From Candidatus Jordarchaeales archaeon (lineage in GTDB: Archaea > Asgardarchaeota > Jordiarchaeia > Jordiarchaeales > Freyrarchaeaceae), in the NCBI GenBank assembly GCA_038889235.1, contig JAWAHN010000003.1, forward strand, positions 323,703 to 355,702: a DNA stretch of 32,000 bases. Direction: 5' to 3'. Shown here in pieces: positions 3,248 to 27,994 of the stretch (positions are counted from its first letter, which is position 1; each line of letters starts with the position of its first letter). A program made the position numbers and the translations under genes. The notes under the pieces are model-generated. The model was not told the origin of the DNA. It made no database searches and saw only the letters and a program-made list of their open reading frames with translations.

Positions 3248-3371
3248 GTTTAGCTTGAATTTTTAGCGTTTTTCCAGGCGAGTTACGCCTGTTTTGCTTG
3301 TTGAGCGCTGTTTTTCTCGTTTTGGTAATTCTAAGTGAAATTTTTATTTTTACTTTGTTCCTTATTCTTGG

Positions 3372-4649: not shown

Positions 4650-4816
4650 GTTGGTTTGTAAAGCTAAGGCTGGCGATGACTAAACATGAGGCTTGTGGTT
4701 GGCGAAGTGGGCCTTAGTTGAAATCCCACGAGCTCTGGTGGAAGATGGTTTCCTCCTGAGGGACGCCGATGCGTGTTTAAGAGGGACATTTAAAAAAGGG
4801 TTTCCGTTCCCCCTCC

Positions 4817-6688: not shown

Positions 6689-7270
6689 TCCTTACATTTC
6701 CCCCCACGTAGCAGCATCTTCGAAAAAATACAATACTTTGTTTTTTTCTTATATTCATTGTGGTTTTTGGTATACGTTACGTCAGCTATATGGTGTCAAC
6801 CTACTTTTCTTTGCCTGCTTCATGGATTAATTGTTGGAGCGCGTTCGGGGTCACGTAACATGATTGGCGGATTTCGGGTGCGGTATTATAATTTGGCAGT
6901 TGCAAGTGACCTTTGCTAGACGGGCACAAACTTTTTGCTCTAGGTTAAGGTGTATCTCTTTCTTCGCTTCTAGCGTTCTATTCAGTGTTTTTCCTTGTTT
7001 TTAATTGTATGGATCGCTGGTGCTGAGTCTTAGCTTTTCCGGTGCAACCTTGATGTCTTTCTGCTTGAGTGGTTCTTCGCTGCTGGTTTTTACGTCTAGA
7101 GTTTGGTAGAGGACGCGCTTCTAACTGCATCTACCAGATAGAGGACGACCAAGAAAACGAAGAATAGTTACTAAGGGGCAAGCTGGTTTATTTTTTTAAG
7201 CCAAAGTTTTTATTCTTGATTCAAATGTTCAGTGAGTTTTAGCGAAAATTGGTGGGGTATTGTGAATAAA

Positions 7271-7765
7271 TGGGTAAAAGTATGTGGAGGACGTCGTAAT
7301 GCTCCTGTAGATTTTGCTGGTAGTGTTGCCTTTGACGAAGAAGGGAACATTATTGTGGCTGAAAGCACGGGCTCCTTTGGTGCTGGAAAAGTGACGTTTG
7401 GGTTTTGAAGCTTAATGAGTATGGGGATGCGATGGCAGAGGACGTATGGAGGAGAAGGTGACGACTTTGCTGAGGACGTTACTGTCGATGATAACGGGAA
7501 CATTGTTGTGGTTGGAAGCACCGAGACGTTTTCGGCGGGAGATTACCCTGCGACCATGGTTTTGTGTCTGGGTCCTGACGGTGAGGTTTACAGCTCCCTC
7601 AAAAGATTCACAGTTACGAGTACAAACACGTTCCCAATCGTGACCAAAGCGTATTCCTCACTCACGCCAGCCAAAGTATCGTATGCGCGCTTGGAGCTAC
7701 TAAATACATGGAAAACAACGACGGACACCAAAGCCACGGTAACTGTATTGGCGCCGCCACAATAA
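7271..7765 (+). pseudogene. Remnant of a beta-propeller repeat (SBBP/WxxTYGG-type) surface protein
   Basis: Two repeats are visible: WVKVCGG...DFAGSVAFDEEGNIIVAESTGSFGAG[fs]DVWVLKLNEYGD[fs]WQRTYGGEGDDFAEDVTVDDNGNIVVVGSTETFSAG. Frameshifts lie near 7392 and 7430, and there is no N-terminus or signal peptide. Confidence 0.7.
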
Positions 7766-7857
7766 GATAAAACAAAAGAACCTCTAAGCGGCAAACCAAT
7801 TGCTTTTGTATGATTATTTTTGCCTTCCATGAGAGTTGAGGTCCTTTAGTGGTGTTG

Positions 7858-8170
7858 CTAGTCGATTTTTATTTCGGATATGTTCTCCAGAACTAGCTGG
7901 TCGCCGTATGCTCCTGTGCTTACTGCTCCGCTATTATTGATTTGTGGGTCTGGGATTATTTTCTTCACTAAAAGGAGCCCTGTCACGTAAATGGTTTTCC
8001 CCCACGAGTTCTTCATGATTTTCCAATTCTGGAATGTAAACGATGTCGTTCTTCAACTTTAGGCAGGGGCCCGATTTGCAGTTGACAACTAGGCCACTCA
8101 GGGTAACCCGTCTACCAAACATTCCTTCCGAAATGGAGTCAAGGGCTTTTCCGTCATCCGCGTTCACCAA
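7858..8170 (-). pseudogene. Small beta-rich hypothetical protein split by one extra G in a G5 run (about 8000)
   Basis: ORF 8170 (..VYIPELENHEELVG) continues in another frame as KTIYVTGLLLVKKIIPDPQINNSGAVSTGAYGDQLVLENISEIKID*, with TAG at 7858-7860. Confidence 0.55.
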
Positions 8171-8283
8171 CTTGGATTAAGAAACCAACGTTGTTTTATT
8201 TAACAGCGGCTCACCTAATTAGATTATTGGCTGTTGCCAGGCTTCATGATCATTTTTGTCTATGTTAGATAGTTTATCTCTAA

Positions 8284-11293: not shown

Positions 11294-11565
11294 CCAGAAC
11301 CCCGCCGAAGAAGCTCTTTCTCTCTTTGATCCTCGCCTCCTCCCTTCAACTCTTTTTCTCGCTCCTCAAGCAGGACTTTAGTGGCTTCCGCTCCTTCAAG
11401 GAAGCCGAAGAGCTCAGAGATTCGGGGGGTCCGCTCGATCAATAACCTAGTTTCATCGATGGGTCTAAAGGTGACCTCAACTCCCTCCCTGTAACCGTAC
11501 TTCTCCCTTATCTCCTTCGGTATAACCACTTGGCCCTTACGGGAGATCTTCGCCTTATACTCCAT
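11290..11565 (-). CDS. vapB: AbrB/MazE/SpoVT-family antitoxin
   Basis: MEYKAKISRKGQVVIPKEIREKYGYREG is a classic AbrB motif. ATG is at 11565 (ORF track start GTG 11574). Confidence 0.9.
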   Translation of the reverse strand: MEYKAKISRKGQVVIPKEIREKYGYREGVEVTFRPIDETRLLIERTPRISELFGFLEGAEATKVLLEEREKELKGGGEDQREKELLRRGSG

Positions 11566-11598
11566 AAACTTCACCCAGAAAACAATCAGTAAGGAGCC

Positions 11599-11633
11599 TC
11601 TAAAAATCTTACGTCTTACTTCTTACGGTAAGA
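11599..11633 (-). promoter_or_regulatory. Promoter/operator of the AbrB-PIN operon: three TCTTAC repeats at 7-bp period plus an inverted copy
   Basis: TCTTAC occurs at 11607, 11614 and 11621, and GTAAGA at 11628-11633 (palindrome TCTTAC-G-GTAAGA). A TATA-like TTTTTAGA lies on minus at 11599-11606. Confidence 0.55.
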
Positions 11634-12090
11634 CCATCTCTAACTAGTTTTACCATTAGAGGACTCGCCTGCTTAGGAAGCCTAACGTGTTTAACGCCTC
11701 TTAAGCAACCTCTCCGAGGCCTTCAGCGCAGAGGGCCACCGCTGAACGCAAGTAGGGCGATTACTACCTTTCCACCCCCTCGGCTTTTTCACACACTCTC
11801 CCGCCTACTCTAAAAGAGACCACTTAAGCAGCACCCTTTCCCAATGCCATACATTTCCAGATGATCAGATGTGCTCATCGGGCGAGCAGCCACATCGACG
11901 TGGTTTTTCACTGGAGTGATGCGGATAAGCCCATACGTGGGTGAGGTCTCCCTAAATGCCTGAACTATTTTTGGTTTGGCTCAGCTGTGCTTCTGCTTGC
12001 GTTTCATGGCTACGTGAGCCGTATTTAGGTTGTAGCTCTTGACGTATTTGAGCCAAAATAATGGCGACGCGACAGGCTGCAACAATCATC

Positions 12091-12920
12091 CACCACCACT
12101 TCATGCTTAACTTGTAGTTATGAGGGTTTTCGTCTTTTCCTAGCTTCCGGAAGACGAAGAGGTATTCGTGGTGTATTTAGGAGGAAGTCCGGTGGCGTTC
12201 CCCCTCTGGCCTTTCAGTCCAATACTCGTTGGCGGTCTTAGCTGGACCAAACCCACTTCTCCCTACTCTTCTTGACGTTCCACTAGCACTTTATGATGTC
12301 TTCTTGGAGGATGAAGCCTGCGTCTAGGAACTGTTGCATCACACTGAATTATACCCGGGACGTAGTGTTTGTGCTTCCTCGTGTCGTCCACGAAGACCAC
12401 GCAGAACCTTCCAGGTTTGAGGACTCTGAAGCTCCTCAGCTGCCTCCCGCACCCCCTTAAGATACTCCTCTAGGTTGTAAACTTGGGAGAGGGCACCTCA
12501 ATCTCCTTCTGCTTGGAGTATGGAATTATGTTTGCGTAGGGAGGATGTGTGGCTATTAAGTCGACGGATTCATCCTCTACTAGGTTGAGGTTTCGTGCGT
12601 CACCATGGTTAAACACTGAATTTGGCTCCTCCCAGTCTGAGCCGATGAGACTACGGTTAAGGTTCAACACGTCAGATGCCAGGGTGCACGCCTCGTAGCT
12701 TATGTCTACGCCGATCGCGTTTCTGCCCAAGAGCTTACACTCGACCAGAGTTGTTCCTCCACCACCATCTACAAGGACAAGCTCGCTGGACTTACTGTAG
12801 CGGAGTATAAGGCAACTTCGGTGGACCAGTTCCCACGGTAATCTCCCTTTTATATGTGGCCCAGTCCCCCTTTATCCGGAAAGCTCCAACATGGGTTTCA
12901 AAGCTGAAATTTTCGGGCCG
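12091..12920 (-). pseudogene. Site-specific DNA (N4-C/N6-A) methyltransferase / TRM11-like SAM-dependent methyltransferase, multiply frameshifted
   Basis: Fragments lie across frames: WSFPDKGDWAT, DYRGNWS, GGGTTLVECKLLGRNAIGVDI, HGDARNL...DLIATHPPYANII, RVLKPGRFC...DTRKHKHY, FLDAGFILQEDIIK, HEYLFVFRK. Confidence 0.88.
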
Positions 12921-13211
12921 ACACCCTGAAAATCATGATTTTAATTAGCACAGGCATGAATACTCGACGGACATTAATGGCGTGTTCGAAGTGTATTCCT
13001 TAGAGGTTGGCTGCACCTTCACACCCCCTGTTGAAGCTTAAAATCTCGATAAGAGATGTTCCGCAAGGGCTTCTGCCGCTTCCAAATCTCGTCGGCGGTT
13101 TCCGAAAGTAGCGAGAAACTTAGAGTAAAAACTTGGGAAAAGGTAATTTCTAAGTGCCGACAATAAGTTTTTGATAACTTGTCTCGGGAGGGAAAGGGTA
13201 TAGCTTTGTCT

Positions 13212-14384
13212 ATGAATGATATTGAGAGGTTGAGGGACGACATTGGCCCCGAGTACGTTATTCAGATGTATGATCCTGTTTCGCGCATGCGTGCGGTCGT
13301 GGTCATTGATACCGCTGTTTTTGGAGTCGCTGCCGGCGGCATCAGGATGCTCCCAGACATAACTACCGAGGAGATCATCCACCTGGCTAGGGCGATGACC
13401 TACAAGTTCGCTATTCTTGATATCCCCGTTGGAGGCGCTAAATCCGGGATATTTGCTGACCCATCCTCTCCTGACAGAGACAGAATAATTGACTCATACG
13501 GGCGCCACATCACACCCTTCCTTAAGCAGTTGATGTATATCCCCGGCGCCGACATGGGAACCTCTGACAGGGATGTTGCAAGGATATACGAGGTTGCAGG
13601 GGTAAAGGAGTTGGCCCCCAGCGGGCTGACGCTCAGGGAGAAGGAGGGTATGCCGCTTGAAGACCACTTGACAGGCTACGGAGTGGTGGTAGCTGCTAAA
13701 ACAGCGTGCGAGCTTATTAGCCTAAGCATTAATGGGGCAACAGTGGCCATCGAGGGGTTCGGCAAAGTTGGAGGGGGAGTGGCACGCTACATGGCTAGGT
13801 CGGGGGCAAAAGTTGTCGCGGTATCCACAATTGAGGGCGCCGTGTACAACCCTGACGGCTTAGACGTCGAGAAAATGCTCGAGATGAGGAAGAAGCTGGG
13901 AGACAAAGTCGTCCTCGAATATGAGAATGGAGAGCACATAGGGAGGGAGGAGCTTTTCACCCTTCCAGTCGACATCCTCGTTCCTGGAGCTAGGCCTTAC
14001 GTTATCAACAAGGGCAACGCGGACAAAATCCAAGCGAAGCTAATAGCTCCTGGGGCAAATATCCCGGTAACAGACGAAGCCGATGAAATTCTGTTGCAGA
14101 GGGGTGTGGTCGTCTTGCCGGACTTCGTCGCAAACTCTGGAGGCGTAATCGCCGCTACACTGGACAGGATGAGCGCCACAGAGGAGAAGGCGTTCAAGGT
14201 CGTTGAAGAGAAAATATCCTCCCTAACCAGGGAGGTCCTATCCAAAGCCCTGAAGGAAAATATGTCGCCCACAAAGTTGGCCAAGGAAATGGCGTTAGAA
14301 AAAGTCAGGAGAGCCATAAAAGATAGGAGACAGCTTCAGGCAGAAGAACTCGAGAGGATAGTTAGAAAGAAAATCGAAGTGTAA
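13212..14384 (+). CDS. Glu/Leu/Phe/Val amino-acid dehydrogenase family protein
   Basis: GGIRM, MTYKFA, VGGAKSGI, DMGT, EGFGKVG and PDFVANSGGV are family motifs. Likely start is ATG 13212 (track start 13179). Confidence 0.92.
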   Translation: MNDIERLRDDIGPEYVIQMYDPVSRMRAVVVIDTAVFGVAAGGIRMLPDITTEEIIHLARAMTYKFAILDIPVGGAKSGIFADPSSPDRDRIIDSYGRHITPFLKQLMYIPGADMGTSDRDVARIYEVAGVKELAPSGLTLREKEGMPLEDHLTGYGVVVAAKTACELISLSINGATVAIEGFGKVGGGVARYMARSGAKVVAVSTIEGAVYNPDGLDVEKMLEMRKKLGDKVVLEYENGEHIGREELFTLPVDILVPGARPYVINKGNADKIQAKLIAPGANIPVTDEADEILLQRGVVVLPDFVANSGGVIAATLDRMSATEEKAFKVVEEKISSLTREVLSKALKENMSPTKLAKEMALEKVRRAIKDRRQLQAEELERIVRKKIEV

Positions 14385-14850
14385 ACGCGTCCTAACACCC
14401 CTAAACCCCGTTCCACACGCAAGTAGCCACGGTCTACGTCCCCGACGGCTCCTCGACGGAAGGCGATTCAACCAAGAACTGCTCCGTCAAATTAATACTT
14501 CCGATAGTGGGGTGTTCGCGCTCAGAAGTATCTTGAGAACCCCGTTTGCGGTATTAACTGCTCCAGTTAGCTTTTCTTTGAAGTGCTCCGAGTTCACCGT
14601 TAACGGCATAAGCAACCTTTCCCGGACACAGACCTACTAGTCACACTAAGCGCGGGCTGAAGGAGGGCAACGCCTCTTTAAATGGTAGGCACTTGGAGTA
14701 CGGTTGTTTGTCCGGGCCTCACACGCTAGGCGCGTTTTAAGCAGTAAAAGTCTCGTAGAAGCTGCATCGAAACATGCAAAGAATAGGCGGCGCTATACAG
14801 ATGTGCGCCGCCGTCCTTTCAGGTATGCGTTTCCCCCCGGGGTCGCTGAG

Positions 14851-15813
14851 CTAACCCCTGCCGGCTTTAACTACCCTTCTTTGGAGCCACGAAGTGTACC
14901 TTCCGGGGGCTACCGCACCTAAGTACAACAGCACTACTGCTGTTACCATGAACACGAAGCCGGCTAACAGAAGCACGGTTAAGCCGCCCAGCAAGGTGTC
15001 AAGGACGTTGAAGAGGAAGAATACCAGCAGCATAACGAAACCTAGAGCAATAGTTTTGAGCCTAGCTGCCTTAATGCGGTCTTTCTCGTCTGAAGCCTTA
15101 CCACGCAGGAAGACTATCACCTGGATTATCGCGACCAGGTTGACGAGCAGCAGTAAGCCGTCCGAAATAAGCCCTATGTCTGGGTGTAGTTGTATGCTGA
15201 GTTCTGGGAGGGGGTCTAGTGCTCCGAGCACTCCTGCCTTCAGCTGCATGTCCAGCAAGCTAAACCTCGGAGCGTACGCTCCAAACCAGTTCATGGGGGA
15301 TACCGTTACGAGTAGGAGTATTGATAGTGGTGTGAGTACTGTTGCTTCTCTTTTGATTCCTGGGTCTTTTTGCTCAGCCATCCAGTGGCCGAACTTGAGC
15401 ATGAAGTAAGGAGCTATGCCTGCAAAAGCCACAGCCAAAGGGGCCCAGTGGGAGAAGGCGGGCGAGTGCCAGGAAAACGGGTTAAACGACATTCCTGTGG
15501 CTATGAAGGATCCTAGCCCGATAGAGGTGGCTGCGGCTCCCAGCGCGTAGAATGCTAGTGCTAGGGCGAAGTACTCTATTACGCGTCTCCCCACCCCAAC
15601 AAGCGGCCTTGAAGCCCTGTAGGCAGAAAGTGCAAGGACAGCTGCCACTGCAGCTGTTGCGCCATAGGTGATACAGAAAATCCATAACTTTGGATCGGCA
15701 ATAGATGGTATGGCTCCGAGAGCAATCTCTGTGGGAACAGTGTAGGCAGTGTAGGCGACCGCGAGAGCGAGGACGACTGCTGTGAACAGTACAGTGTAAC
15801 CTTTCGGCGTCAC
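14851..15813 (-). CDS. 8-TM receptor-like membrane protein, paralogue A
   Basis: 320 aa with eight hydrophobic helices, basic cytoplasmic loops and the tail LYLGAVAPGRYTSWLQRR. It aligns end to end with 18110..19063. Confidence 0.85.
   Translation of the reverse strand: MTPKGYTVLFTAVVLALAVAYTAYTVPTEIALGAIPSIADPKLWIFCITYGATAAVAAVLALSAYRASRPLVGVGRRVIEYFALALAFYALGAAATSIGLGSFIATGMSFNPFSWHSPAFSHWAPLAVAFAGIAPYFMLKFGHWMAEQKDPGIKREATVLTPLSILLLVTVSPMNWFGAYAPRFSLLDMQLKAGVLGALDPLPELSIQLHPDIGLISDGLLLLVNLVAIIQVIVFLRGKASDEKDRIKAARLKTIALGFVMLLVFFLFNVLDTLLGGLTVLLLAGFVFMVTAVVLLYLGAVAPGRYTSWLQRRVVKAGRG
15178..15292 (-). repeat. Inverted repeat block 3, 115 bp, identical to 18631..18745
   Basis: Direct base-by-base comparison: gaactggttt...cacccagac. 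Confidence 0.95.
15313..15422 (-). repeat. Inverted repeat block 2, 110 bp, identical to 18501..18610
   Basis: Direct comparison: caggcatagc...aatactccta. Confidence 0.95.
15526..15592 (-). repeat. Inverted repeat block 1, 67 bp, identical to 18331..18397
   Basis: Direct comparison: ggggagacgc...gcagccacc. Confidence 0.95.
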
Positions 15814-16097
15814 AATCTCTCACCTAATAGTTTACGTAAGAGGGGAGGATGCATAAAAAGCCTCCTTTTTCTGATGCGTGTAAACCCCGGGGAGAAGAGG
15901 GCTGTCCCGGGTTTCACGCGAACACAAACTCTATTTGGCACCGGGTACCAGCCAGGACGCTTTAAACCATTCGATATATATTTATCAAGACATTTTCTAG
16001 AGATTTCTATATACAATGCTTCTACGAGATGAGTGTCGAGTCGAGTTAGCGGAGTCCGAGGAAGAATAGAGACTTTAGAAACAGCGTGGTGGTTGCG

Positions 16098-17996
16098 ATG
16101 ATAATAGGGTACATGTTGCTTAGCGCTGGGGGAATACCGGTAGTTACTAGCAGTGCTATGGATATGATGGGGGATATGGAGTCCCTGTTCGCGGGAGCTA
16201 TGACCGCCATAAATAGTATAATAGCGGAGGTCATGAAGACTAGGGTTAGGTATGTGAGGACGGAAAAATACCACCTGTACTTCAGCTACTCTAGTGAGTT
16301 GACACTTGTGCTCATCTCTGAGGTTGAGGAACCCAGGCTGCATCAACTGGCTGACGCCGCGCTGAGCGAGGTGTTAAGGACGATCGATGACCCTTCAAGG
16401 CTCGCGTACGACTCTGACGCACAGAACTTCGTAAGCAAGGTGATCAGGGAGGTCCTCGCTAAGCGTCTACCTCCAATATCGGTCATAAGCAAGGTTGCAG
16501 ATATGCTAGCCGCATTATCAGATAGTATTAGAGGAGGCATGAAGCTAGGTCTGGGCAAAATAATTTTCATTCCAAGGGAGTTGAAAGTGGAAAAGGTGGA
16601 GGTGAAGGCTAAGGGGAAGGGGGACATCAAAAAACTCGTCGAACTGTTCTTGAACGGGGACTTAGAGAGCGTCGTCGAGGAGGCGCCGGCGTTTTTCGAG
16701 TCGGATCTGGCGAGGATCCTCTACGCTAAGGCTGCCTTAAAGATAAACTCTTTTCCGCCAGAGGTGAAGGCCCCGTCTCTAGATAGGGTCTACTCCGTTA
16801 TACTAAGCGTGAAGGACGACTTGGCAAGGTCTCTTCTCGCGGCGGAGCTGAGGAGGTTCCTAGAGGCGGGAACATACTATGAGAGAGAGAAACTGATTGA
16901 GGAAAAACTCTTCGAGCTAAGTGAGAAATTTAAGTTGGACTACGAGGGCGCCGGAGCGGTTTACATAGCCCTAACGTTGCCGGCGGGGAGAAGGGAGCTG
17001 CTAGAACTGGCTGAGCAGCTCATCGGAGAGCAATACCAGTATTTCAGGCAAATTTTGAAGACTACTCCCTCACTTCTGAAGTCATCCATCCTGAGTATAG
17101 GGGAGACAGAGGGGTGGAGCGCCGCTGTCGGTAGAGTGAAGTACGAGTCAAAGAGAGTGACACCGGGGCCGGTGGAGGCATCCTACAACTACCTCCTAGC
17201 CTTTCAGCTCGCCATACTATGTGGCTTAGTTGAGGGGGGCTTGGACTTCGAAGCCGGCCGCGAACTGCTCAGCGACGCCATAAGGGAAGCTGAGAAGAAG
17301 TATGATTCTCTAAGAAAGCTGTCTAAAAACGTTCCCAGCGACGTGCTGGCGGCAAACTACTGGTTCACCTATAACGCTCTCACGGGCATACTGATGTTCA
17401 CTCTTCCCGCCGAAGATATAGAGAAGGAGATGTTAAAGTATGGGGAGAGGATAGCTGAAGTAGTAAGCTGGCTTATGGATGCAGCTAAGAGGAACAGGAT
17501 TTCAGTGGACATGTACATCTTGGCAATGGCTGGGATGCTAGCGGCATACTCGCGACTGATGTTCCTCCTAGGGACCCCGATCCCGGACCTTCCATACTAC
17601 GTTAAGCAGTTAGCCATCCCCGAGCTGGAACGCATATGGGACTACTCCCCCCACCACTACCTACACTTGGTCATGGACTGCCTTGAAGCATTAGGCCACA
17701 CGGCAAGCTTCCTACCCATGGAAACAGCGAGGAAAAACATACTAAAGGAAATAGCAGCAAACCTGGAGGAAATATACAAGACAGCCAGTCACACGCCTGT
17801 AATGTCTATTCTCGCAGCTCTAAGCGCCACAAGGTTTTACGTCCTATGCGGAGACGAAGAGGCAAAAGAGAAAGCAAGAAAGCTTGCGGAAAAAATCTCG
17901 GAGGTAAACGAGTTCTTCGCCTCACTTGTTGAAAAAACCATAAACATAGATAAAGCCCTGAGGAGGAAGCCGTCCCCATACGACGTGTTTGTATAG
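16098..17996 (+). CDS. N-terminal longin/roadblock-like domain protein with a long alpha-helical (solenoid-like) C-terminal region
   Basis: The N-terminus follows the longin beta-beta-alpha-beta-beta-beta-alpha order: IIGYMLLS-AGGIPVV / SLFAGAMTAINSIIAEV / VRYVRT-YHLYFSY-LTLVLIS / RLHQLADAALSEV. The remaining ~520 aa are amphipathic helices. Start is ATG 16098 or GTG 16086. Confidence 0.75.
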   Translation: MIIGYMLLSAGGIPVVTSSAMDMMGDMESLFAGAMTAINSIIAEVMKTRVRYVRTEKYHLYFSYSSELTLVLISEVEEPRLHQLADAALSEVLRTIDDPSRLAYDSDAQNFVSKVIREVLAKRLPPISVISKVADMLAALSDSIRGGMKLGLGKIIFIPRELKVEKVEVKAKGKGDIKKLVELFLNGDLESVVEEAPAFFESDLARILYAKAALKINSFPPEVKAPSLDRVYSVILSVKDDLARSLLAAELRRFLEAGTYYEREKLIEEKLFELSEKFKLDYEGAGAVYIALTLPAGRRELLELAEQLIGEQYQYFRQILKTTPSLLKSSILSIGETEGWSAAVGRVKYESKRVTPGPVEASYNYLLAFQLAILCGLVEGGLDFEAGRELLSDAIREAEKKYDSLRKLSKNVPSDVLAANYWFTYNALTGILMFTLPAEDIEKEMLKYGERIAEVVSWLMDAAKRNRISVDMYILAMAGMLAAYSRLMFLLGTPIPDLPYYVKQLAIPELERIWDYSPHHYLHLVMDCLEALGHTASFLPMETARKNILKEIAANLEEIYKTASHTPVMSILAALSATRFYVLCGDEEAKEKARKLAEKISEVNEFFASLVEKTINIDKALRRKPSPYDVFV

Positions 17997-18109
17997 GCAG
18001 GAAATCCTCTCTTCGAGAGAGCAACGCAGCCGGGTGAAAGAACGTCTCAAATAAAACTATATAGACGCCGGCTTTTTTGTAAAGGTGAGTTGAGTGTGGA
18101 GGAGTTGTT

Positions 18110-19063
18110 GTGGAGCCTAAGGGTTATGTTGCGCTTTTTGCTGTAGTAGCCTTCGCCTTCGCGTTTGTCTACACCACTTACACTATTCCAGCGCAGGCGG
18201 CTCTCGGAGCGATTCCTTACTTTGTTGACGCTAGAGTACGGGTTGCTCATTTTGTTTACGGGGGTATAACTGTAGTTGCGGCGCTTTTGGCACTATTTGC
18301 CTACAAGGCTTCGAGACCCCTGGTTGGGGCGGGGAGACGCGTAATAGAGTACTTCGCCCTAGCACTAGCATTCTACGCGCTGGGAGCCGCAGCCACCACC
18401 ATAGGACTAGCATTTTTCATAATCACGGGAATGTCGTTCAATCTAACCACATGGCATGGACTCGTCTACCCCTGCTGTATTCCCGTGGCAATGATGTTTT
18501 CAGGCATAGCTCCTTACTTCATGCTCAAGTTCGGCCACTGGATGGCTGAGCAAAAAGACCCAGGAATCAAAAGAGAAGCAACAGTACTCACACCACTATC
18601 AATACTCCTAGTAGCAATGACGCTTCCTACGAACTGGTTTGGAGCGTACGCTCCGAGGTTTAGCTTGCTGGACATGCAGCTGAAGGCAGGAGTGCTCGGA
18701 GCACTAGACCCCCTCCCAGAACTCAGCATACAACTACACCCAGACGTAAGGCTCCTCGCAAATGGTCTACTATTATTCGTCAACTTGGTGGCATTAATCC
18801 AGATAATCGTGTTTTTGCGTCGTAGAATTGTGAGTGAGACGGAGCACTTGAAGGCTGCCAGGCTCAGAACGGTACTATTCGGCTTCCTAGCTATGCTAGG
18901 ATTCTTCGCCTGCTACACACTTGACGCGTTGATGGGAGGAGGTTACACTGTCCCATTGTTTGTTGGCTTCGTCTTCGGCATAACAGCTTTAATATTGTTG
19001 TATATTGGAGTGGCGGCTCCCAAGTGGTACACGTCATGGATCCAGAAAAGAGCAAAAAGTTAA
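18110..19063 (+). CDS. 8-TM receptor-like membrane protein, paralogue C
   Basis: 317 aa with the same TM layout as 14851..15813 and the tail LYIGVAAPKWYTSWIQKR. Confidence 0.85.
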   Translation: MEPKGYVALFAVVAFAFAFVYTTYTIPAQAALGAIPYFVDARVRVAHFVYGGITVVAALLALFAYKASRPLVGAGRRVIEYFALALAFYALGAAATTIGLAFFIITGMSFNLTTWHGLVYPCCIPVAMMFSGIAPYFMLKFGHWMAEQKDPGIKREATVLTPLSILLVAMTLPTNWFGAYAPRFSLLDMQLKAGVLGALDPLPELSIQLHPDVRLLANGLLLFVNLVALIQIIVFLRRRIVSETEHLKAARLRTVLFGFLAMLGFFACYTLDALMGGGYTVPLFVGFVFGITALILLYIGVAAPKWYTSWIQKRAKS

Positions 19064-19829
19064 ACAAGCAGAAAAGATGCAGCCCCCGCAATTACTAACT
19101 TTTGCCATTGAACACGTCAACAGGCAGCTAAACTTTCTCAAAAGGCATTCATACATCAAAAAACTCACCACAAATCGTAAGTTCAAATAGAAAGTTGGAA
19201 CGAAAACCAACGTGACCTCACACTAGGAGACTGCTAGCTAAAAAATCCTAGAAAGACTTTAAAGGAGCATTCATTCTGGCTCAAGCCCTCCCAACACCTT
19301 TTAACTCTTTTTTACTTTAAGGCAGAAATCGGCCTTTTAATTTCTAATACGGAAATTTTTAAGGGAGCTATGAAGAGAGCCTAAGTAAATCTCTCAAATT
19401 TTTCAACTACATACAACACCCCTTTACTCCTCGTGAATTGAAAATCTTGGTTTCGGCACGCTTATTGCATCCCTTTTACCCGTACTTTTCCTCTACTGGC
19501 TTACGCTTTCAAACCTCACAAACTGATTTAAGTAAAAAACAAGCCAGAAGCGATGCGAAACACAATCAACTATTGCTTATCTACTATTAAGAGGATTCAC
19601 GGGGGTCTAAATTTAGCTCATCGCACGTAAATTTTACTTAATAAAGCAATCATTCATCCATTTACATAAAATCCAAATCCTAAAAGAAGTTCACCAAATA
19701 GTTGAAAATCTCAACACAGAATACCCCTGCCTCTTTTTAAGTGAAATTTTAAGTAACATAAGTTTTTATTTTTGTGTCAATCATAATTATTTTAGTTATA
19801 ATTATTTTAGTCAGGGTGGTTGGGGAGTA

Positions 19830-21114
19830 ATGGGAGCCGTTCCTTTGTTTGACCGTAGTGTGGTTAAAATAACGTCTATTTTCGTCGCTGTAATGTTAGG
19901 CATTGTTCATCCTGCCTTTTGCTTCTTAACTTGTAAGAACCAATTTATTGAAACAATTTCTTTCTCGGGTTTAACGTTTGCTACTTTATTTGGCATCGGT
20001 ATTCTTTCAGGACTCCTACTGTGGGTCTGGTTAGGTAAGGAGCTGGGGCATAGGGCTTTTGGTGTTTGTGATTTTGAAAGTCCAACTAGAAGAATTGTCT
20101 TTGCGTGGTCCTTGGTTATTCCTGCTTCACTTCTCGTAGCAACGCCAACTCTATCTGTACTGACTATTCTGTATATAATTGGCCTACTCGAACTTTTCCC
20201 TGCAACATTTCTTAGCATCTTTGCAGTTATACTTGGTTTTTTTATCATATGGATCCTGATGAACAATGTCCAGTTCAGAGAATCCATTGAGGTTTATCCA
20301 AAACCAATCATAATGCTCACTATGATTATATTATTTATTACAGCATTAGTCGTAGTCCTCTATTTTATTTATGTTTCAATTAGCAATTGGCAAAACAACC
20401 TTCGGATTCTATTTTTTATCTTACCATCACTATGGCTCCTGCTCACTAAAACGATCCCTATCCTAAATTTGCCTGAAGCCGGATCAATTGTACTTTTCTC
20501 GGGAGTGCTCCTATCTATATATATCATTACGGGCGCTGTGATCTTCATATTCTATGCTTTTAGGTATATTGAAGAAACTAGAAAAGAAGTTACTAGCAAT
20601 CAAGGTTTAATTATTGTTATGAAAGCAGGTGAAAATAAGGATGTTAAGTGGGAAGAATTAAAAAGAGAGTTTTCAAGTCTAAGGGGAGAGGTTTGGGCAA
20701 GTTTACCTTACTTGGATGAAGATTCGGTAGAAATTCTTGAAGAAATTCCCGAAGATACGAAAGTACATATTATCACAGGCGTGGTGAACAGTAAGTTTAA
20801 AGAAAAAAATACAAAATTTAAAACGAAAAAAATTACGAATAGTTAAAATAAGTAAAAAAGAACAAGATAGCCCTGTGATCCATGATAGAATTGTAGTAGC
20901 TACTAATAAAATTCTAATTATAGGAACAGATATTAAAAAGTCAAGCCTTAACAAAGATACATTAATTTTAAGTCTTCAAACCGATAAAATCAAAGACGTA
21001 GAGAAATTGGTTAACCTTTTGAAAGAATACTGGAATAAAAAGGACTACGAATTGGAAGAGCAACACAATGCACGTAGAGAAACAATATATCAATACCGAG
21101 ACGAAAAGGAATAA
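19830..21114 (+). pseudogene. Multi-TM protein with a C-terminal PLD-fold (HDR-type) domain, split by a frameshift in an A7 run
   Basis: ORF 19830..20846 has about 7 TM, then WASLPYLDEDSVEIL...VHIITG. Removing one A from 20803-20809 gives EKIQNLKRKKLRIVKISKKEQDSPVIHDRIVV...LIIGTDIK, which joins ORF 20875..21114 into about 427 aa. Confidence 0.7.
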
Positions 21115-22132
21115 CGTTAACAGAATGTTAGAAGAAATTAGTTAATTTAACTCGATAACTTAATTGTGTTCATAATGAAAATTATTTTTATCTTCGCTTA
21201 AATTCTTGTAAAGAGATTCGTTAATTTTAGGTTTATTGTGCGTGGTGTCTTTGGTTCGTCTTTGAAGTGTTCTTCTGTGTCTTTGTATTTTTGTCTTCGC
21301 AACTTCCCCTTTTTTGTACTTCTTTTCTTGTGACGCAGATGCTTTCTTTATGTTTTTTGCTCTTATTTTTCGATGAGTTGGTTAGATGTGTGATTTTTGG
21401 GTTTGTTTGGCTTAGCGGTGGGATGAAGATAGTTTATCGTGAATGTGTTGTACCGGGGACTTGTTGAGCTCGACTATTGTTCCGATCTCGTGCTCTGCTC
21501 TTTTTCGTATAGTGGGGGACGTTGAATCTTAATATGTTGAGTCTTATTTGGAGGTAGAGTTCATTTTTTTCTGAATTTTCGACCTCACTTGTGAGGCATT
21601 TGTAGAGTCTGTTAATGAATTGTTTTCGTTACGCAGCTCCGTTCGTAGGAGTTTTGAGCTCAATAGAATCTGAAAAACCAGGATCCGCTTCGGCTTATTC
21701 GGGACTGAATGGTTCATGTTCTTCAATTGATTGTTATGCTTGCTGAATGTTAATTTGCTGATGGAGGTAATTAGTTTTCTCGTGACATTAGGATTCATAG
21801 AAGTAAATTTTACTGAAGGAGGTTTAGAAGCGAATTATGAAAGAATTAAGGAAGTTCCTCGGGAAGGCAAGAGAACAAGAGATTTACGGATTCAACCTTT
21901 GGTCGAGAAGGCGATGTTCCGAAAGACCGACATGAAAAGCACAAGGAAAACTTAAAAGACAAATAAAAAGGCCATATAGAGGCGAAAGAGCCGCAAAACA
22001 TGGGGATTGAAGGGAGGGTGGGTGTCTTCTTTTTGTGGCGGTGTCTTTTTGAGGTGAAACGAGTTTCTTGCGTGTTGGGGGTTTGAAGCGTTTTGTGTGG
22101 TGGGGTGAGTTTTATGTGTGATGGAAGGAGGT

Positions 22133-22843
22133 TTAACGGTTTTTTCTTAGTAGGGCTTTTAGTATTCTGACTATTTGTTTAACTGTTTGGCTCCAGAGGA
22201 AGGGTATTGTTCTCCACGTGTGTGAGTATCCGACGGCGGGTATTGAGAGTATGATTCGGGAGAGTATTGTTGCGAGTATTCGGTGTGCTGGGAAGAGTTT
22301 AAGGGTTGTGGCTAAGTACCATGTTTGGATGGTGTCTCTTTCGACGTAGTGGTGGATTACTCCTATGCTTGGCAGCGTTACCCATTTTCCTTTCTTTTTG
22401 ACATGTCTGTAGAGGATGTCGTCTTCGCAGTGGAAGACTTTTGGAGGGTTGTAGTCGAAGAATACTTCTCTTTTTATCAGGGTGTTGCAGATGAAAAGTG
22501 TTTCTCTGGTGTGGACTGGTTTTATCTTGTTGGTGACCTTCTTGTAGGCTTCGACGTGTATGTTGTCGTCTACGCGCACCGTTGAAACTGCTACAACGTT
22601 TGGCTGCCTGGCGAACTTGCTGACGACCTCGAACCAGTTTGGCGGAATTACGACGTCGTCGTCGAACATGGCTATCCATTCGGTTTTACACTTTATCGCT
22701 CCTATCTTTCTCGCTACGGAAAGCGGCCTCGAAGTCTCAAAAACCACGTTGTTAACCCATGGTGCGCTCGCAAGAACTTCTAAGAGGCGAGGGTTCACCC
22801 TCGAGGGGTTCCTAGTCGGAATTAAAACATCAACCTTATCCAT
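22133..22843 (-). CDS. Glycosyltransferase family 2
   Basis: MDKVDVLIPTRN, LSVARKIG, WIAMFDDDV (DxD) and FHCEDD are GT2 motifs. Likely start is ATG 22843. Confidence 0.88.
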   Translation of the reverse strand: MDKVDVLIPTRNPSRVNPRLLEVLASAPWVNNVVFETSRPLSVARKIGAIKCKTEWIAMFDDDVVIPPNWFEVVSKFARQPNVVAVSTVRVDDNIHVEAYKKVTNKIKPVHTRETLFICNTLIKREVFFDYNPPKVFHCEDDILYRHVKKKGKWVTLPSIGVIHHYVERDTIQTWYLATTLKLFPAHRILATILSRIILSIPAVGYSHTWRTIPFLWSQTVKQIVRILKALLRKNR

Positions 22844-23823
22844 AACGTGCACCAACACGCACGTTAGAGCCTTAAAGATTTCGCATGCCACGCATACAAA
22901 AATTTTGTCCCCTTACCTTGAGGAGAGGAAAAGGCATCGCACGTCAAACCACGTGCACATGAACACGCAACCTGCAAATTTCTCCTTTCACACACCCCTT
23001 TATACCAAGAGGCATCTCCATGCGGACTTATAGTAACGCTTAGCATTCAACACTTACATTTCCATTTGAGTCACTTGGAAGCAACGCAGAAACCCTTCGA
23101 AGACACACAAGCTACGCTAGCCGGCTTCGAGCGAGTAATCCTCTTTTTCGTTAAGCCCTTCCTTCAACCTACCCGAAGATTAACGTTCAAGTAATACACC
23201 CTTCAAACTTAGAAGTTCTACGAACTATTTATATGCCGCTCAAGAAGTCGAGGCAGAGGTTGTGTCTGCACTTTTCGTGGTAAGACTTTGTTTCAACGTG
23301 TTTTTGTGCATAATGCATGATGTATATTATTGGTTGGAGGTGGTTTCCTACTGTTAGGATAGGTGGTGAGGCTGGGAGGGGTTATTGTTTGGTTGATTTT
23401 TGGGGTTCGAGGGATTTCGGTCGGCTGTGATATCGCCGCCAGGCGAGGTAGACTTTTCGAGACGAACCTAGAGGATGGTTCGTGATTTGGTTTGGATGGT
23501 TTGTCTTTTGGCAGCCAAGGGGGTTTTATACAGTGGCGTGTCACAATGCCGGGTTAGGTGAGGCTGTGGCCCTAATTGGGAAAGTTCGTCTTGAAAGTTT
23601 TAGGGAGTGGGGTTTTGCTTGCTGACAGGAGTTTTGTCGAGAGATGTGAGCTCGTTGAGAAGTTTGCATGGGACGTGCAACTTCCAGGAGGCTGGACGAG
23701 TGTGCCGTGTCATTTTTCAAGGAGTATTACGTTGGAGGGGTTACTTTTGGTGTTTTAGATTTTGCCTCAATAGGTTTTTAGAGTTGCGCGTTTTTACTAT
23801 CGTGATAGTGGTTTGTTTGGTTT

Positions 23824-24300
23824 TTGGGTCCTTATGGACGCGTTTTGGACAGGCTTGTTGAGCGCTTGAAGGAGCGCTTTGACCTCGTTAGTGTGGTTGT
23901 TTTCGGGTCTGTGGCGAGGGGGATTTCAGGAGTGATAGTGACATAGATGTTTTGATCGTGGCTGACAACCTGCCTGACAGGTATGAGCGTTTTAAGATTT
24001 TCGACGAGGTAGAGAGGTGTCTGGAGGGTGAGCTGAACGAGTTGAGGAGAGCTGGGTTTAGCGCACTCATCAACCCGATAATTAAGTCTGTCGAGGAGGC
24101 TGGTAGGTTTTCCCACTCTACTTAGACATGGTTGAGGACGCCGTCATACTTACGATAGGGACGGCTTCTTTAGGGGGATTCTCGATAGGCTTAGGAGGAG
24201 ACTAAAGGAGCCTGGGGCTAAACGGGTGCGCCTAGGAAAAAAGTGGTACTGGGTTTTGAAGGAGGACTACCGTTTCGGGGAGGTTATAAAGATTGAATAA
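23824..24300 (+). pseudogene. MNT nucleotidyltransferase antitoxin with three 1-nt deletions
   Basis: Reconstructs as VVVFGSVARG[D]FRSDSDIDVLIV...FS[P]LYLDMVEDAVIL[Y]DRDGFF...KWYWVLKED...IKIE*. Confidence 0.88.
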
Positions 24301-24719
24301 CGTGGGAATGGCAGCGTCATACTTGGAGGAAGCTTTGAGGAGGATTAGGTGGCTGAGTGGGCTCTCAACGAGGGGGCTACGCCTATTGCATCAGGCAGTC
24401 GCAGGAAGCCGTAGAGCTGGCGTTAAAGGCAGCGTTGAGAGTGGTGGGAGTTGAGCCTCCAAAGTGGCATGACGTCAGCCCAGTCTTGTTGGAGAGCCGT
24501 GGACGTTTCCCTAAGTGGTTTGACGAGAAAATAGATGAGCTAGCGTCAACGTCGAGGTGGCTTAGGCGTGAGAGGGAGCCCAGCATGTATGGCGACGAGG
24601 AGAGCGGTCTACCTCCGCAAAAGCTTTACACGAAAATCTACGCGGAGAGAGTGCTTAACGAAGCGAGAAACACCGTTAAGCTAGTTCACAGGCTAGTCCG
24701 GGAAGGGCTGAATAAGTGA
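24293..24719 (+). pseudogene. HEPN-domain toxin with two 1-nt deletions near the N-terminus
   Basis: TTG 24293 overlaps the MNT stop. It reads MAASYLEEALRRIR[V]AEWALNEG[G]YAYCIRQSQEAVELALKA...PPKWHDV...REPSMYGDE. Confidence 0.85.
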
Positions 24720-24800
24720 GCTGAGGCACTTTTGCACAGTCTTTAGCCAAAAATAGTTAGCACCATCTTTTTCAAAAGTTGTTTGAACCTGTTCTGCAGG

Positions 24801-25220
24801 TTACCTCTGCTTTTTCTTTGTCACTTTCACGATTCCCTCATCTGCATCCACAACTACGTGGTCTCCCGTTTCTATTACTTCAAGAGGGTTCCTGTCTAGG
24901 TTGTCTATGAAGGGTATCTGTGCGAGTATTGCTCCCGTCAAGAGTATTTCTTCGCTTTTCACGTTGATTATGGCTGCTGGAGCCGTGCCACGCTTCTTCA
25001 TGGCGTAGACGGCGAAGGGGTTGTACGTCGTTCCTTTCCCGTAGGGGAATACGAGGACTTTCCCCTTAACGCTTTTCCCCTCTATTTCGTGCCCTTTCTC
25101 GATCACTATCCCAGTGTTCGGGTCTACGCCTCCAACGAAGGATATCGGCTGCCTTGAGACTAGCGCTTCTCCCTCAGCCTTCCCCCCAACCAGTCCACGT
25201 CCCTTCAAAACCAGGCTCAT
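24801..25220 (-). CDS. Aconitase X swivel-domain (small) subunit, DUF126
   Basis: LKGRGLVGGKAEGEALVS..ISFVGGVDP.TG...GKVLVFPYGKG matches the family. ATG 25220 overlaps the large-subunit stop (TAATG). Confidence 0.92.
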   Translation of the reverse strand: MSLVLKGRGLVGGKAEGEALVSRQPISFVGGVDPNTGIVIEKGHEIEGKSVKGKVLVFPYGKGTTYNPFAVYAMKKRGTAPAAIINVKSEEILLTGAILAQIPFIDNLDRNPLEVIETGDHVVVDADEGIVKVTKKKQR

Positions 25221-26458
25221 TACTTTCCCCTCCACCTCCCGGTTAATGCCGCCTGTATGCATTCACGCGTGCTCCCATAAAGGTGTTCGACTCCTGGAGC
25301 GTAGTAGGCTGACCTCGGAGAGTTTGTTGCTACGACTTTAACGCCTCTCGCAGCGAAGGGCGCGCCGGGCCCCATGCAAATGTTAGTAACGACTAGGCCG
25401 CCTGCTTTCTCAATTGTCTGTGTCCACCCAGCCTTGTCAGCCACGACCTTAACCTGGTAGGATGTCCCAACCCAGAGCTTTACACCGTCATGCACTTTTT
25501 TGCCCTCAAGCATACTGGCTATCTCCCTTATCTCGCTGTACGTCAGATGTGGGCAACCAAAGTTCACCATGTCAACCTTGTCCTCGCCGGTAGTGGAGAT
25601 CTCATCGTACGCCGCCTTTACGTCCGACATGTCAACCTGGACTTTCTCGGGCTTCTCCCCTCCGCACGCTGCCTCGAGCGTTGGGGCCTCCGGGGTCAAA
25701 CCGGGTATGTGGAACATGGGTATAGCTCCGCTGACGTGGAGCGGTGAGGCGATAGCCCTAAGCTGTTCTAAACTGAGCTTTTTCGGGAGGCCAATGAACG
25801 CGGGAATCTCGGTGCCCACAACTTTTCCCACGTGGAACGCCAGCGCCCCCCAGTCGGCGTCGCTAAACTCCTTGAAGTCAAGCCTACTGCAGTCGACCAC
25901 AACACGCGCCCTTCTGTTCTCCTTCAACAATAACCCGTACTCGGGCGCCCTCCCTGTGATCGCAACACAGTAGTTCGTTACTATTCCATCCATGTTTCCG
26001 CGCGCTCCGAGAACGGAGTTAGCGAAAACAACTCCGGCGGAGCCAGTCCACGAGAAGACGTCGCCCGGCATAAGGAAGTCTCCGAGGAGGTACTGGATGC
26101 ATGTGCCCATAGGTATGACGCCCATCTTGAGGGAGTAGCTGAAGATCTGCTCTGCAAGCTGCTTTATCTCCGGCGAGTTCCCGTATATGGTGCCGACCTC
26201 CTCCCAGTGCTCGTAGTCTATGCCCCAGGGATGCCTCGTCGTGAAACACCTGAAGCGTGCACCACCCTGAATAAGCCTCTCATACCACTCAACCTCTTCG
26301 AGAAACAGTCCGGCAGCGACGTGCGCGCTCTTGGCTTCAACCATCCTCTCCGCACCGTAAGCCTCGGCAACTTTTACAAGTATCCTCATAGCTTCCTGGG
26401 TAGCAGCTCCATACTCCCCGTCAAACATCCTTTCTTCTTCCTTCGTGAGGAAGACCAC
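25220..26458 (-). CDS. Aconitase X catalytic (large) subunit, DUF521
   Basis: FLTKEEERMFDGEYG, FANSVLGAR.N, GCPH and three candidate Fe-S cysteines (GTCIQY, GCPH, NICM). Confidence 0.92.
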   Translation of the reverse strand: MVFLTKEEERMFDGEYGAATQEAMRILVKVAEAYGAERMVEAKSAHVAAGLFLEEVEWYERLIQGGARFRCFTTRHPWGIDYEHWEEVGTIYGNSPEIKQLAEQIFSYSLKMGVIPMGTCIQYLLGDFLMPGDVFSWTGSAGVVFANSVLGARGNMDGIVTNYCVAITGRAPEYGLLLKENRRARVVVDCSRLDFKEFSDADWGALAFHVGKVVGTEIPAFIGLPKKLSLEQLRAIASPLHVSGAIPMFHIPGLTPEAPTLEAACGGEKPEKVQVDMSDVKAAYDEISTTGEDKVDMVNFGCPHLTYSEIREIASMLEGKKVHDGVKLWVGTSYQVKVVADKAGWTQTIEKAGGLVVTNICMGPGAPFAARGVKVVATNSPRSAYYAPGVEHLYGSTRECIQAALTGRWRGK

Positions 26459-27337
26459 AACCCTCCCTCCGGTAGGAAGAATACGGAGCAGGCGAAGCTA
26501 TTAAAAGTTTTTAGGGGGAAGTGCGGAAGATGCTCACGTGGCGGAAGAACACAGGCCTCCCGAAAACCGTACTTCAAGCTCAAAGTTAGTTGTCACGTTG
26601 CAGACTCCTTCACCTGTAAAAACCCGCTCTGAAGGTTCGGGCTCCGGCGGCCCCTGTACTTTTCGAGGTTTTAAGTTCCCCCGTACATGTGTTTATGTTT
26701 GAAAACGTGGTGGTGGAAAGCCAATGGGTTTATGAATGAGCTTCAGAGGCTGAAGAGGGATGAAGTACTTTTCACACGTTATTTTTGAGTTCATCTAGGG
26801 GAAGCAAGATGAGAGCCTCGGAGTGCTGGAGGGGCACATATTGGAGACTTGCGGATGAAGAGCTTAAGCGAGCCGTGACTGAGGATAGGGTTAAGGGACA
26901 TGATTTTTGACAAATTCTTTAGCTCTGAGAGATTTACAGAGATTCCCTTTAAAGAGTAAAGGGAGAGGTTGAGCTAACGTAGATTAAGCATTTACGAGCT
27001 CTCACAGGGGAGCGGAGTACGTTAAAACGAAGTGTGAGCGGAGCTACGAGTACAAGCCGGTCAAGATACTCGTGGGGGTTTGAGGTCCTATTCTTCGCCA
27101 AAAAGTCTTTGAGATCCTGGCGGCGATATGGGAGGATGAAGGGAGAGGGGGAGGTGAATGACACGAAAGTAACGATCTCGGTTATCAGGCTTTAGAAGAG
27201 GTCCTAAAACCCTTAGAGGAGGATTTCGGTGTAACAAGGAGGTTGCCGAGGACCTTAAAGTTGAAACGTTAAGGGCACTAAAAGTGTAAGGTCGACTTCC
27301 CCCCGGGATTGAGCGGTTGAAGCAAATAGGGGACGCT

Positions 27338-27994
27338 TTACTCTTGCCGGCTGGAATACAACAGGATTACATGGGTGTTTGGGGCGAGAAATATTTCGGC
27401 TGGGCTGACGCCGAAGTCTGTTAATGGTGACCAGAAGGGGACGCCGTCCACGTCTGGCCCGCACGGTACACCGGCTACTGTGACGGACGCCTTGTAAGCT
27501 GCCCAGACTATTTCACTGCAGTAGTAGCTGTCCCCGTATATTCTCTTCTGGAAACAGTTCCAGTTACATGGCTTCCCCACCTGGTTGAGGGCGAAGAGCG
27601 CCGCTGCGAGCCTAACATTTATGGGGGCGTTGACTCTGAGCACGCAGAACTCCTCACACTCTAATACGTACTGAAGGGGGCTGCAAACCACCCCCCTCAC
27701 GGTTCCCTCCACCACCATCCCCCAGCCAACGTATATCATTGCGTGAGTCCAGTAAGGCGAGTAACGTACACCCACTAGGAGGTCTTCTACTCCGCTCCCC
27801 CTAACGAGTATTATGTCCCCGGGCTGGACTACCTCTTTAAGGCGGCGCTCGGCGGAGTCCTTGTCCGATACGTGTTCGCACGTCGTGAAGGCAACATCCG
27901 TGAGCTGCGCTGGGAAAAGGTTGCAAAAGTTGACCACTAGTGGCAACGTAACTACTAAGGGTAAAGCTAATAGGACAAGGACTCGGCGCTTCAT
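27338..27994 (-). CDS. Permuted papain-like NlpC/P60 (YiiX/YebB-like) protein with an N-terminal signal or anchor
   Basis: QPGDIILV...WTHAMIYVG (His) precedes YYCSEIVWAAY (Cys), the permuted order. The N-terminus is hydrophobic. Confidence 0.85.
   Translation of the reverse strand: MKRRVLVLLALPLVVTLPLVVNFCNLFPAQLTDVAFTTCEHVSDKDSAERRLKEVVQPGDIILVRGSGVEDLLVGVRYSPYWTHAMIYVGWGMVVEGTVRGVVCSPLQYVLECEEFCVLRVNAPINVRLAAALFALNQVGKPCNWNCFQKRIYGDSYYCSEIVWAAYKASVTVAGVPCGPDVDGVPFWSPLTDFGVSPAEIFLAPNTHVILLYSSRQE

Follow-up and report, generated by a model that had tools for sequence, protein, structure and literature searches.

The locus described here lies in a window of 32,000 nucleotides (nt) on contig JAWAHN010000003.1 (positions 323,703 to 355,702 of the forward strand) of GenBank assembly GCA_038889235.1, the genome of a Candidatus Jordarchaeales archaeon. 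The host is a hot-spring Asgard archaeon of an uncultivated lineage. Its genome is referred to as G000 and the contig as C3; coordinates without a contig name are window positions. Two paralogous genes for membrane proteins, A and C, stand head to head around a third gene, B, with the two copies 2.3 kb apart (Table 1). Parts of both genes form a 568-nt inverted repeat, the arms of which (15099-15666 and 18257-18824) are 82% complementary. Within this repeat there are three short blocks at which A and C are identical, separated by segments at which they differ strongly. Genes of the same family in the related species G002, G003 and G004, of which G003 is the congeneric sister species, are labelled M. 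The order of B followed by M is kept in four species of the family.

Table 1. Features of the A-B-C locus and related block pairs (window positions unless a contig is named)
Feature	Position	Strand	Description
Gene A	14851-15813	-	Open reading frame (ORF); 320-aa multi-pass membrane protein; orthologue of M1
Gene C	18110-19063	+	ORF; 317 aa; paralogue of A (66% amino acid identity); M2-type; downstream of B
Gene B	16098-17996	+	632 aa (636 aa from a GTG at 16086); predicted longin-like N-terminal domain and helical solenoid; inside the interior that would be inverted
Block 1, A copy	15526-15592	-	67 bp; aa 74-96; predicted end of a cytoplasmic loop and transmembrane helix (TM) 3; A/M1-type residues
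Block 1, C copy	18331-18397	+	Separate Logan contig, 2x depth
Block 2, A copy	15313-15422	-	110 bp; aa 131-167; predicted inner half of TM4, charged cytoplasmic loop and TM5; observed crossover site
Block 2, C copy	18501-18610	+	Exact reverse complement of the A copy
Block 3, A copy	15178-15292	-	115 bp; aa 174-212; predicted outer loop between TM5 and TM6
Block 3, C copy	18631-18745	+	Exact reverse complement of the A copy
Variable segment v12 of A	15423-15525	-	103 bp; predicted outer end of TM3, outer loop and outer half of TM4
Variable segment v23 of A	15293-15312	-	20 bp; predicted outer end of TM5; LVTVSPM, as against VAMTLPT in C
A-B divergent intergenic region	15814-16097	.	A+T-rich, TATA-like stretches; inside the interior that would be inverted
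B-C spacer	17997-18109	+	TATA-like box, T-run and GGAGG before the GTG start of C, as read from the sequence
Glutamate dehydrogenase (GDH) gene	13179-14384	+	Pfam ELFV_dehydrog, E 8e-53; left flank marker; adjoins the chimeric gene in the flipped contigs
Other block pairs in G000	C1:16783-16924 / C3:57475-57616; C1:151976-152128 / C1:272317-272469; C3:261550-261844 / C3:418644-418937; C3:284625-284981 / C3:406437-406793

The blocks had first been noticed in an earlier inspection of the letters alone, referred to here as the sequence-only reading. All three coordinate pairs are indeed reverse complements of each other, with 0 mismatches over 67, 110 and 115 bp. Over 948 aligned nucleotides A and C share 73% identity, which drops to about 60-63% outside the blocks. 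When the differences between the two genes were permuted 20,000 times, including permutations that took codon position into account, the longest exact run had a mean of 19 bp and a maximum of 49 bp. The absence of synonymous differences that had been claimed holds as well: there are 0 at the approximately 73 synonymous sites in the blocks, as against a synonymous divergence (dS) of 1.4-1.7 outside them. The intervening and flanking parts are as divergent as described, and the divergent peptides quoted for them were verified. Identity with the counterpart in C is 60% for v12 (18398-18500) and 40% for v23 (18611-18630). With only 7 codons, dN/dS of v23 offers too few sites for a claim of diversifying selection.

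Identity of this kind could be an artefact of assembly, through collapse or a consensus effect, or could result from selection on the DNA or RNA sequence itself. Near-identical repeats can collapse in assembly, and in the Logan contigs a bubble at v23 has been popped. Against collapse, which the sequence-only reading had itself named as a weak point, stands the agreement of block identity across ten separate assemblies. Furthermore, Logan contigs of three hot-spring runs from two studies break off precisely where the blocks end, and those of the repeats show approximately twice the depth of their flanks (207 and 217 as against about 100 in X1; 49 as against about 28 in X2). These contigs were built at k=31 with bubbles popped, including that of the 20-bp v23, so rare variants inside the blocks could be missed. 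They contain no joints from which orientation could be read, and speak neither for nor against inversion. Within the species, an identical A protein occurs in 7 other assemblies and an identical C protein in 5, giving exact copies on 8 and 6 contigs, respectively. As to selection on the nucleic acid, the block regions of A and its G003 orthologue M1 differ with a dS of 0.8-1.2, and constraint at the nucleotide level cannot explain the identity of A and C. A search of Rfam gave no match within 14000-19600. Both artefact and nucleotide-level selection are, on this evidence, barely credible as the origin of the blocks.

The history of the two genes differs between the blocks and the remainder. 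Outside the blocks, A groups with M1 of G003 at 100/100 support, and C groups with M2 of G003 and the single-copy M genes; inside them the two genes are identical. Identities taken segment by segment point to the same incongruence, and orthology is kept in v12 (0.81 for A/M1 and 0.71 for C/M2). The A protein is 74% identical to M1, and residue signatures of C recur in M2 and in the one M gene that G002 and G004 each have. Orthology outside the blocks indicates that the duplication is older than the split between G000 and G003, and that the blocks were homogenised later. The proposal of gene conversion is borne out by the tree incongruence, the segment identities and the contrast in dS. Together these comparisons show A and C to be old paralogues, with blocks that arose through gene conversion at a later time. 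C has A/M1-type residues and the A/M1 indel state in blocks 1 and 3, with block 3 of C being free of the ‘GV’ insert found in M2, G002 and G004. A was accordingly the donor for blocks 1 and 3, the only two of the three for which a donor can be determined.

A similar process has operated in the sister species. In G003 the arrangement is B1, M1, a B pseudogene and M2, all on one strand, and G002 and G004 have a single B-M pair each. Where block 2 lies in A and C, M1 and M2 share a tract of their own: 83 exact nucleotides, immediately preceded by a single mismatch. Their 5′ halves also have a lowered dS. The sequence-only reading had looked to orthologous loci for tracts with different boundaries; an independent tract was found, and its 3′ boundary is the same as that of block 2. 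This independent tract shows that concerted evolution is recurrent at the locus. Block 2 is the most conserved segment of the protein, which would make it the likeliest site for recombination to start and to be tolerated.

Evidence that exchange has gone beyond conversion came from a search with protein A. This returned P0002, a chimeric protein 83% identical to A, which matches C perfectly over residues 1-167 and A perfectly over residues 168-320. It is encoded on two contigs of conspecific metagenome-assembled genomes (MAGs), L014 (GCA_038837545.1, 8,180 bp) and L015 (GCA_038894675.1, 3,832 bp), and on both the gene order is B, the chimera, then GDH on the opposite strand. BLAST places positions 1-2796 of L014 on window 15958-18753, and positions 2333-8180 on the reverse complement of window 15633 down to 9783. 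In the flipped contigs, the reverse complement of window 15312 down to 9783 thus follows directly on window 15958-18610. Diagnostic sites are C-type through gene column 391 and A-type from column 502, with zero other mismatches. Such a switch from C to A across block 2 is the product expected from a crossover in block 2 that flips the interior.

The inverted form is present in two of the ten conspecific assemblies. The orientation of the window is found in G000 and in seven other assemblies, five of the seven having the locus on contigs of 21-187 kb. L014 and L015 differ in their haplotype of single-nucleotide polymorphisms (SNPs) in the interior, and each haplotype also occurs in the reference orientation. 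A Joint Genome Institute (JGI) metagenome scan for the 49-nt core of block 2 had 0 matches. The sequence-only reading had predicted that a crossover in a block would flip the interior and create chimeric receptors. The chimeric allele and its block-2 junction, seen on two contigs, agree with this prediction; the reciprocal junction it also entails was not found, and the contigs in question are short. It is probable that the locus is polymorphic for a real inversion.

A number of observations weigh against a real inversion and lean towards a rival account. Under that account only conversion took place, the orientation of the window is fixed, and the chimeric contigs are artefacts that arose at low coverage when the A and C copies were joined across the 110 bp they share. 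Only short contigs of fragmented MAGs carry the flipped form; of 3.8 and 8.2 kb, they break off at window 15666 and 15958, respectively, before reaching block 1 on the 5′ side of A. The flip is seen in none of the six long-contig assemblies (that of the window included), as against two of the four fragmented ones. The reciprocal chimera, with the 5′ part of A and the 3′ part of C, was not found among full-length or shorter proteins of a collection that mostly leaves out partial genes at contig ends. A near-length search with A returned only 5 proteins, and a search of shorter proteins with C returned none. A look-up through the downstream glycosyltransferase gave no contigs of the two flipped assemblies. 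The SNP haplotypes of the flipped contigs are also found in assemblies in the reference orientation. At low coverage, two gaps beside block 2 might be enough for a lower-k graph to connect A with C across the 110 bp. The three tracts are compatible with one patchy conversion event as well as with several.

How these MAGs were assembled bears on this question. They probably come from Qi et al. 2024 (PMC11094006), in which samples were assembled separately using SPAdes with k up to 127. Contig ends of G000 overlap by exactly 127 nt (C2:1-127, C3:1-127, C4:1-127 and C2:501578-501704 / C4:22615-22741), a signature of SPAdes at k=127 that points to the assembly method of that study. Some of the 8 contigs of G000 are probably joinable. 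As k=127 exceeds the length of every block, single k-mers span all three, and this counts against an artefact if the MAGs do come from that study. An artefact would further require two hidden coverage gaps beside block 2 in each assembly; with a real inversion, the short contigs need no such extra gaps. The same junction, one of six possible chimeric joints, was assembled independently in two samples and on two interior haplotypes. Finally, crossovers are a normal and expected accompaniment of conversion between inverted copies (PMC6735719). A real inversion is favoured by the joint recovered twice, by the economy in coverage gaps and by this expectation, leaving conversion with artefactual contigs possible but rather unlikely.

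The machinery required for such an inversion appears to be that of the host. It had been claimed that no recombinase lies in the window and that host homologous recombination would have to act. In agreement, matches to PF00589 and PF00239 occur on contigs C1 and C2 and none on C3, and RadA is present (C1:818133-818852, E 3e-105), along with paralogues and NucS. Under the proposed mechanism, RadA-dependent recombination would repeatedly pair the A and C copies. Non-crossover outcomes would copy short tracts between them, with A serving as donor for no fewer than blocks 1 and 3, so that three exact blocks remain, separated by segments that were never converted. A crossover inside a block would invert an interior of approximately 2.9 kb that comprises the 5′ part of A, both putative promoters, B and the 5′ part of C. 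The intergenic region between A and B is a candidate for the promoters of these two genes, and the signals in the B-C spacer are putatively the promoter region of C. The flip would thus exchange the C-terminal halves, while each N-terminal half keeps its own putative promoter. Downstream of B there would then be the C(1-167)/A(168-320) hybrid, with its A/C reciprocal standing alone. This combination of conversion and RadA-mediated inversion is considered the probable explanation of the locus, with the flipping regarded as a tolerated by-product of recombination.

A dedicated invertase or tyrosine recombinase acting at sites inside the blocks would give the same inversion. The genome does encode a single tyrosine recombinase (C2:476122-476586), C1 and C2 contain resolvase-like fragments, and archaeal invertons have been reported, although little studied (bioRxiv 10.1101/2023.03.11.532203). 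None of these recombinase genes is on C3 or near the locus, however. The repeats are coding blocks of 67-115 bp with a history of conversion, as opposed to short core sites, and the blocks differ between species. Site-specific inversion is accordingly rated as highly improbable.

The nature of the exchanged proteins has a bearing on what such a flip would mean. Pfam has no family for A and gives only a sub-threshold match to DUF4389 for C. A profile built from six members of the A/C family matched only 28 representative clusters among 1.8 billion proteins. One match in the representative library, P0008 (703 aa, E 2e-58 to the M profile), has this membrane domain with GAF, HisKA and HATPase_c domains after it, and provides the sole clue to function in a family that otherwise lacks annotation. 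The closest structural neighbours of the ESM Atlas model of A are seven-transmembrane (7TM) sensor modules, with TM scores of 0.5-0.6; an AlphaFold2 (AF2) model, with a mean predicted local distance difference test (pLDDT) score of 52, was too poor for a fold search. On the strength of the P0008 fusion and the Atlas neighbours, the most plausible reading of the family is that of a membrane sensor module.

For A and C, eight helices with both termini inside are predicted from hydropathy combined with helix prediction and the positive-inside rule. On this topology v12 corresponds to the outer loop between helices 3 and 4, and v23 to the outer end of TM5. The sequence-only reading had the scaffold and two cytoplasmic loops homogenised, with the outward-facing helix ends left variable. 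This fits the cytoplasmic parts of blocks 1 and 2 and the outward position of v12 and v23; block 3 departs from it, being an extracytoplasmic loop on the predicted topology. In distant homologues the family profile finds two separate modules (residues 6-185 and 207-318), which places the crossover at the module boundary.

Gene B encodes a partner of a different kind. Its AF2 model (pLDDT 74) has an N-terminal domain with the order beta-beta-alpha-beta-beta-beta-alpha, followed by a helical solenoid. The top Foldseek matches of B are all longin domains (AP sigma/mu, MON1, Fuzzy and zeta-COP), with a probability of 1.0 and weak E values of 2e-3 to 5e-2, and the modelled N-terminal domain is described as longin-like. 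There was no Pfam or PDB sequence match for B, and profile searches of M and B against PDB sequences gave nothing significant. Complex prediction of B with A returned a score of 0.00, which is evidence neither way. A paralogue of B (633 aa, 34% identity) is located approximately 1 kb before the window start (G000:C3:320790-322649; L013:5773-7674). It has no adjacent M-type membrane gene and is followed by a rubrerythrin-like ORF.

Given a sensor family of this type, it could be proposed that the locus is a selected switch, shufflon-like but independent of a recombinase, in which the blocks are maintained as crossover sites. RadA flips at any block would then recombine the N-terminal module, v12, v23 and the C-terminal module of the two sensors, with up to eight configurations of the locus. 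The choice of hybrid expressed together with the longin-solenoid partner B would change as well. In favour of this proposal, blocks and the most divergent segments take turns along the gene, the latter facing outward on the predicted topology, and the crossover falls between the two modules. The M domain is the membrane input of a GAF-histidine kinase in P0008, the flipped form occurs on two haplotype backgrounds, and the sister species homogenises the same block. Nevertheless, a single recombinant type, that of block 2, has come to light, and none with a crossover in block 1 or 3. The G003 genes are in direct orientation, such that a crossover would delete the intervening DNA, and homogenisation there cannot serve inversion. 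The identity of the blocks is accounted for by conversion together with top protein conservation, and exact blocks also occur in other paralogue pairs of G000. The likeness to a shufflon that had been drawn earlier holds in that the product of inversion would be a hybrid; no dedicated recombinase lies adjacent to the locus, and selection for switching is doubtful.

An exact 50-mer scan of G000 located these other pairs (Table 1). Exact inverted blocks of 56-155 bp are present in distant paralogues, namely a pair of GH1-like glycosidases and a pair of proteins of ~1270 aa, and in non-coding repeats. Conversion-like homogenisation is hence not unique to A and C. The midpoints of both C3-C3 repeat pairs (~340.2 and ~345.7 kb) are near the A/C locus (340.7 kb), which may be a coincidence.

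Several further observations concern rearrangement around the locus. Comparison of L010, L045 and L046 of G003:C15 with window 10818-31965 reveals that the segment from B to a gene for a 232-aa protein (window ~16090-29851) is inverted relative to its flanks between G000 and G003. These flanks are GDH and a methyltransferase on one side and an FGGY kinase on the other. In G003 a 39-aa remnant of the GDH C-terminus is found directly upstream of B1, with the intact GDH approximately 33 kb away. Approximately 21 kb between the homologue of gene D and the AcnX region of G003 have no counterpart in the window. On this alignment the locus is positioned at a rearrangement breakpoint. The decayed second B between M1 and M2 of G003 (L010:5713-6509) has a C-terminal fragment that is 79% identical to G003 B1 and 50% to G000 B, which suggests conversion between the G003 B copies too. 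No remnants of B were detected in the intergenic regions of the window. On a possible derivation of the inverted A from a G003-like tandem, B1-M1-psiB2-M2, the pseudogene fragments give mixed signals, the middle one being closer to G000 B and the C-terminal one to G003 B1.

The regions flanking A and C show differences between strains or assemblies. Upstream of GDH, window 12433-12766 and ORF fragments within 11300-13180 contain methyltransferase-like pieces and stretches free of long ORFs, which suggests pseudogenes or frameshifts. Strain SNPs and indels are concentrated upstream of GDH (12065-12092 and 12360-12370). On the 3′ side of C, a membrane-protein gene (window 19830-21170; L016-L020, L026) is situated in a low-GC island, with a GC content of 0.35-0.37 over 19001-22000. 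It is called as 338, 214+103, 191+153 or 427 aa across conspecific assemblies, and its G003 homologue has 419 aa. Single-base indels, for example at 19209, 19774, 20236 and 20803, lie behind these differing calls, and reflect either frameshift polymorphism or homopolymer assembly error.

Reports of chromosomal inversions and of phase-variable loci are scarce for Archaea and, to our knowledge, lacking altogether for Asgard archaea. The locus combines a mosaic history of conversion, an independent parallel in the sister species and public assemblies that contain the predicted recombinant allele. If the flip is real, host recombination alone would make hybrid sensors in natural populations of an uncultivated Asgard lineage, and the locus could be used for measuring ectopic recombination in such organisms. 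If the flip proves an artefact, the case becomes one of ordinary concerted evolution, and a warning that MAG contigs can be chimeric across 110-bp repeats. A true switch would imply that cells of a population differ in sensing or in what they expose at the surface, for example to viruses. The pairing of a rare eight-helix sensor family with a longin-solenoid protein is also relevant to how eukaryote-like components of trafficking and signalling originated.

Among known systems, the pattern of short tracts has a possible analogue in Sulfolobus acidocaldarius. Recombination in this hyperthermophilic archaeon yields multiple short, discontinuous tracts separated by unconverted markers (PMC3367456), a multi-tract pattern that resembles the three-block mosaic of A and C. 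The Sulfolobus case concerns DNA received by transformation or conjugation in a crenarchaeon, whereas the present one would be ectopic exchange between chromosomal paralogues of an Asgard archaeon, and the comparison is one of analogy only. At the protein level, A is a structural neighbour of 7TM sensor modules such as HisKA_7TM (PF16927) and 7TMR-DISM_7TM (PF07695), and its relative P0008 carries kinase domains. A and C differ from these in having no Pfam match, no output domain and apparently eight helices, and in being paired with a longin-solenoid protein.

Shufflons, invertible hsdS and tail-fibre segments (Rci, Hin/Gin/Cin and the tyrosine-recombinase hsdS switches) and intragenic invertons (bioRxiv 10.1101/2023.03.11.532203) likewise swap C-terminal parts through inversion of coding DNA between inverted repeats, so that one locus gives alternative proteins. 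In shufflon-type systems a dedicated site-specific recombinase acts at short core sites. The A/C locus, in contrast, has no recombinase on its contig, and its repeats are converted coding blocks. The difference in orientation is also seen here between assemblies, as opposed to within one clonal population.

The closest known case is that of tufA and tufB in Salmonella enterica, whose concerted evolution by RecA-dependent gene conversion is linked to inversion of the chromosome (Abdulkarim & Hughes 1996 and Hughes 2000, as cited in PMC6735719; PMC5485169). These two inverted paralogues undergo host homologous recombination with no dedicated recombinase, in which non-crossover events homogenise the copies and crossovers invert the DNA between them. 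The tuf genes are near-identical over their full length, are 761 kb apart and encode the same protein, so that inversion makes no new protein. By comparison, A and C are ~62% identical outside the blocks and lie close together, and a crossover would produce hybrid proteins and place another C-terminal half after B. The recombinase expected in an Asgard archaeon is RadA, as against RecA for tuf. What differs from the known cases is that the locus is archaeal, that its copies are strongly diverged outside short blocks and that a crossover makes hybrids. By analogy, it may be described as tuf-type conversion and inversion acting on a sensor-like membrane protein.

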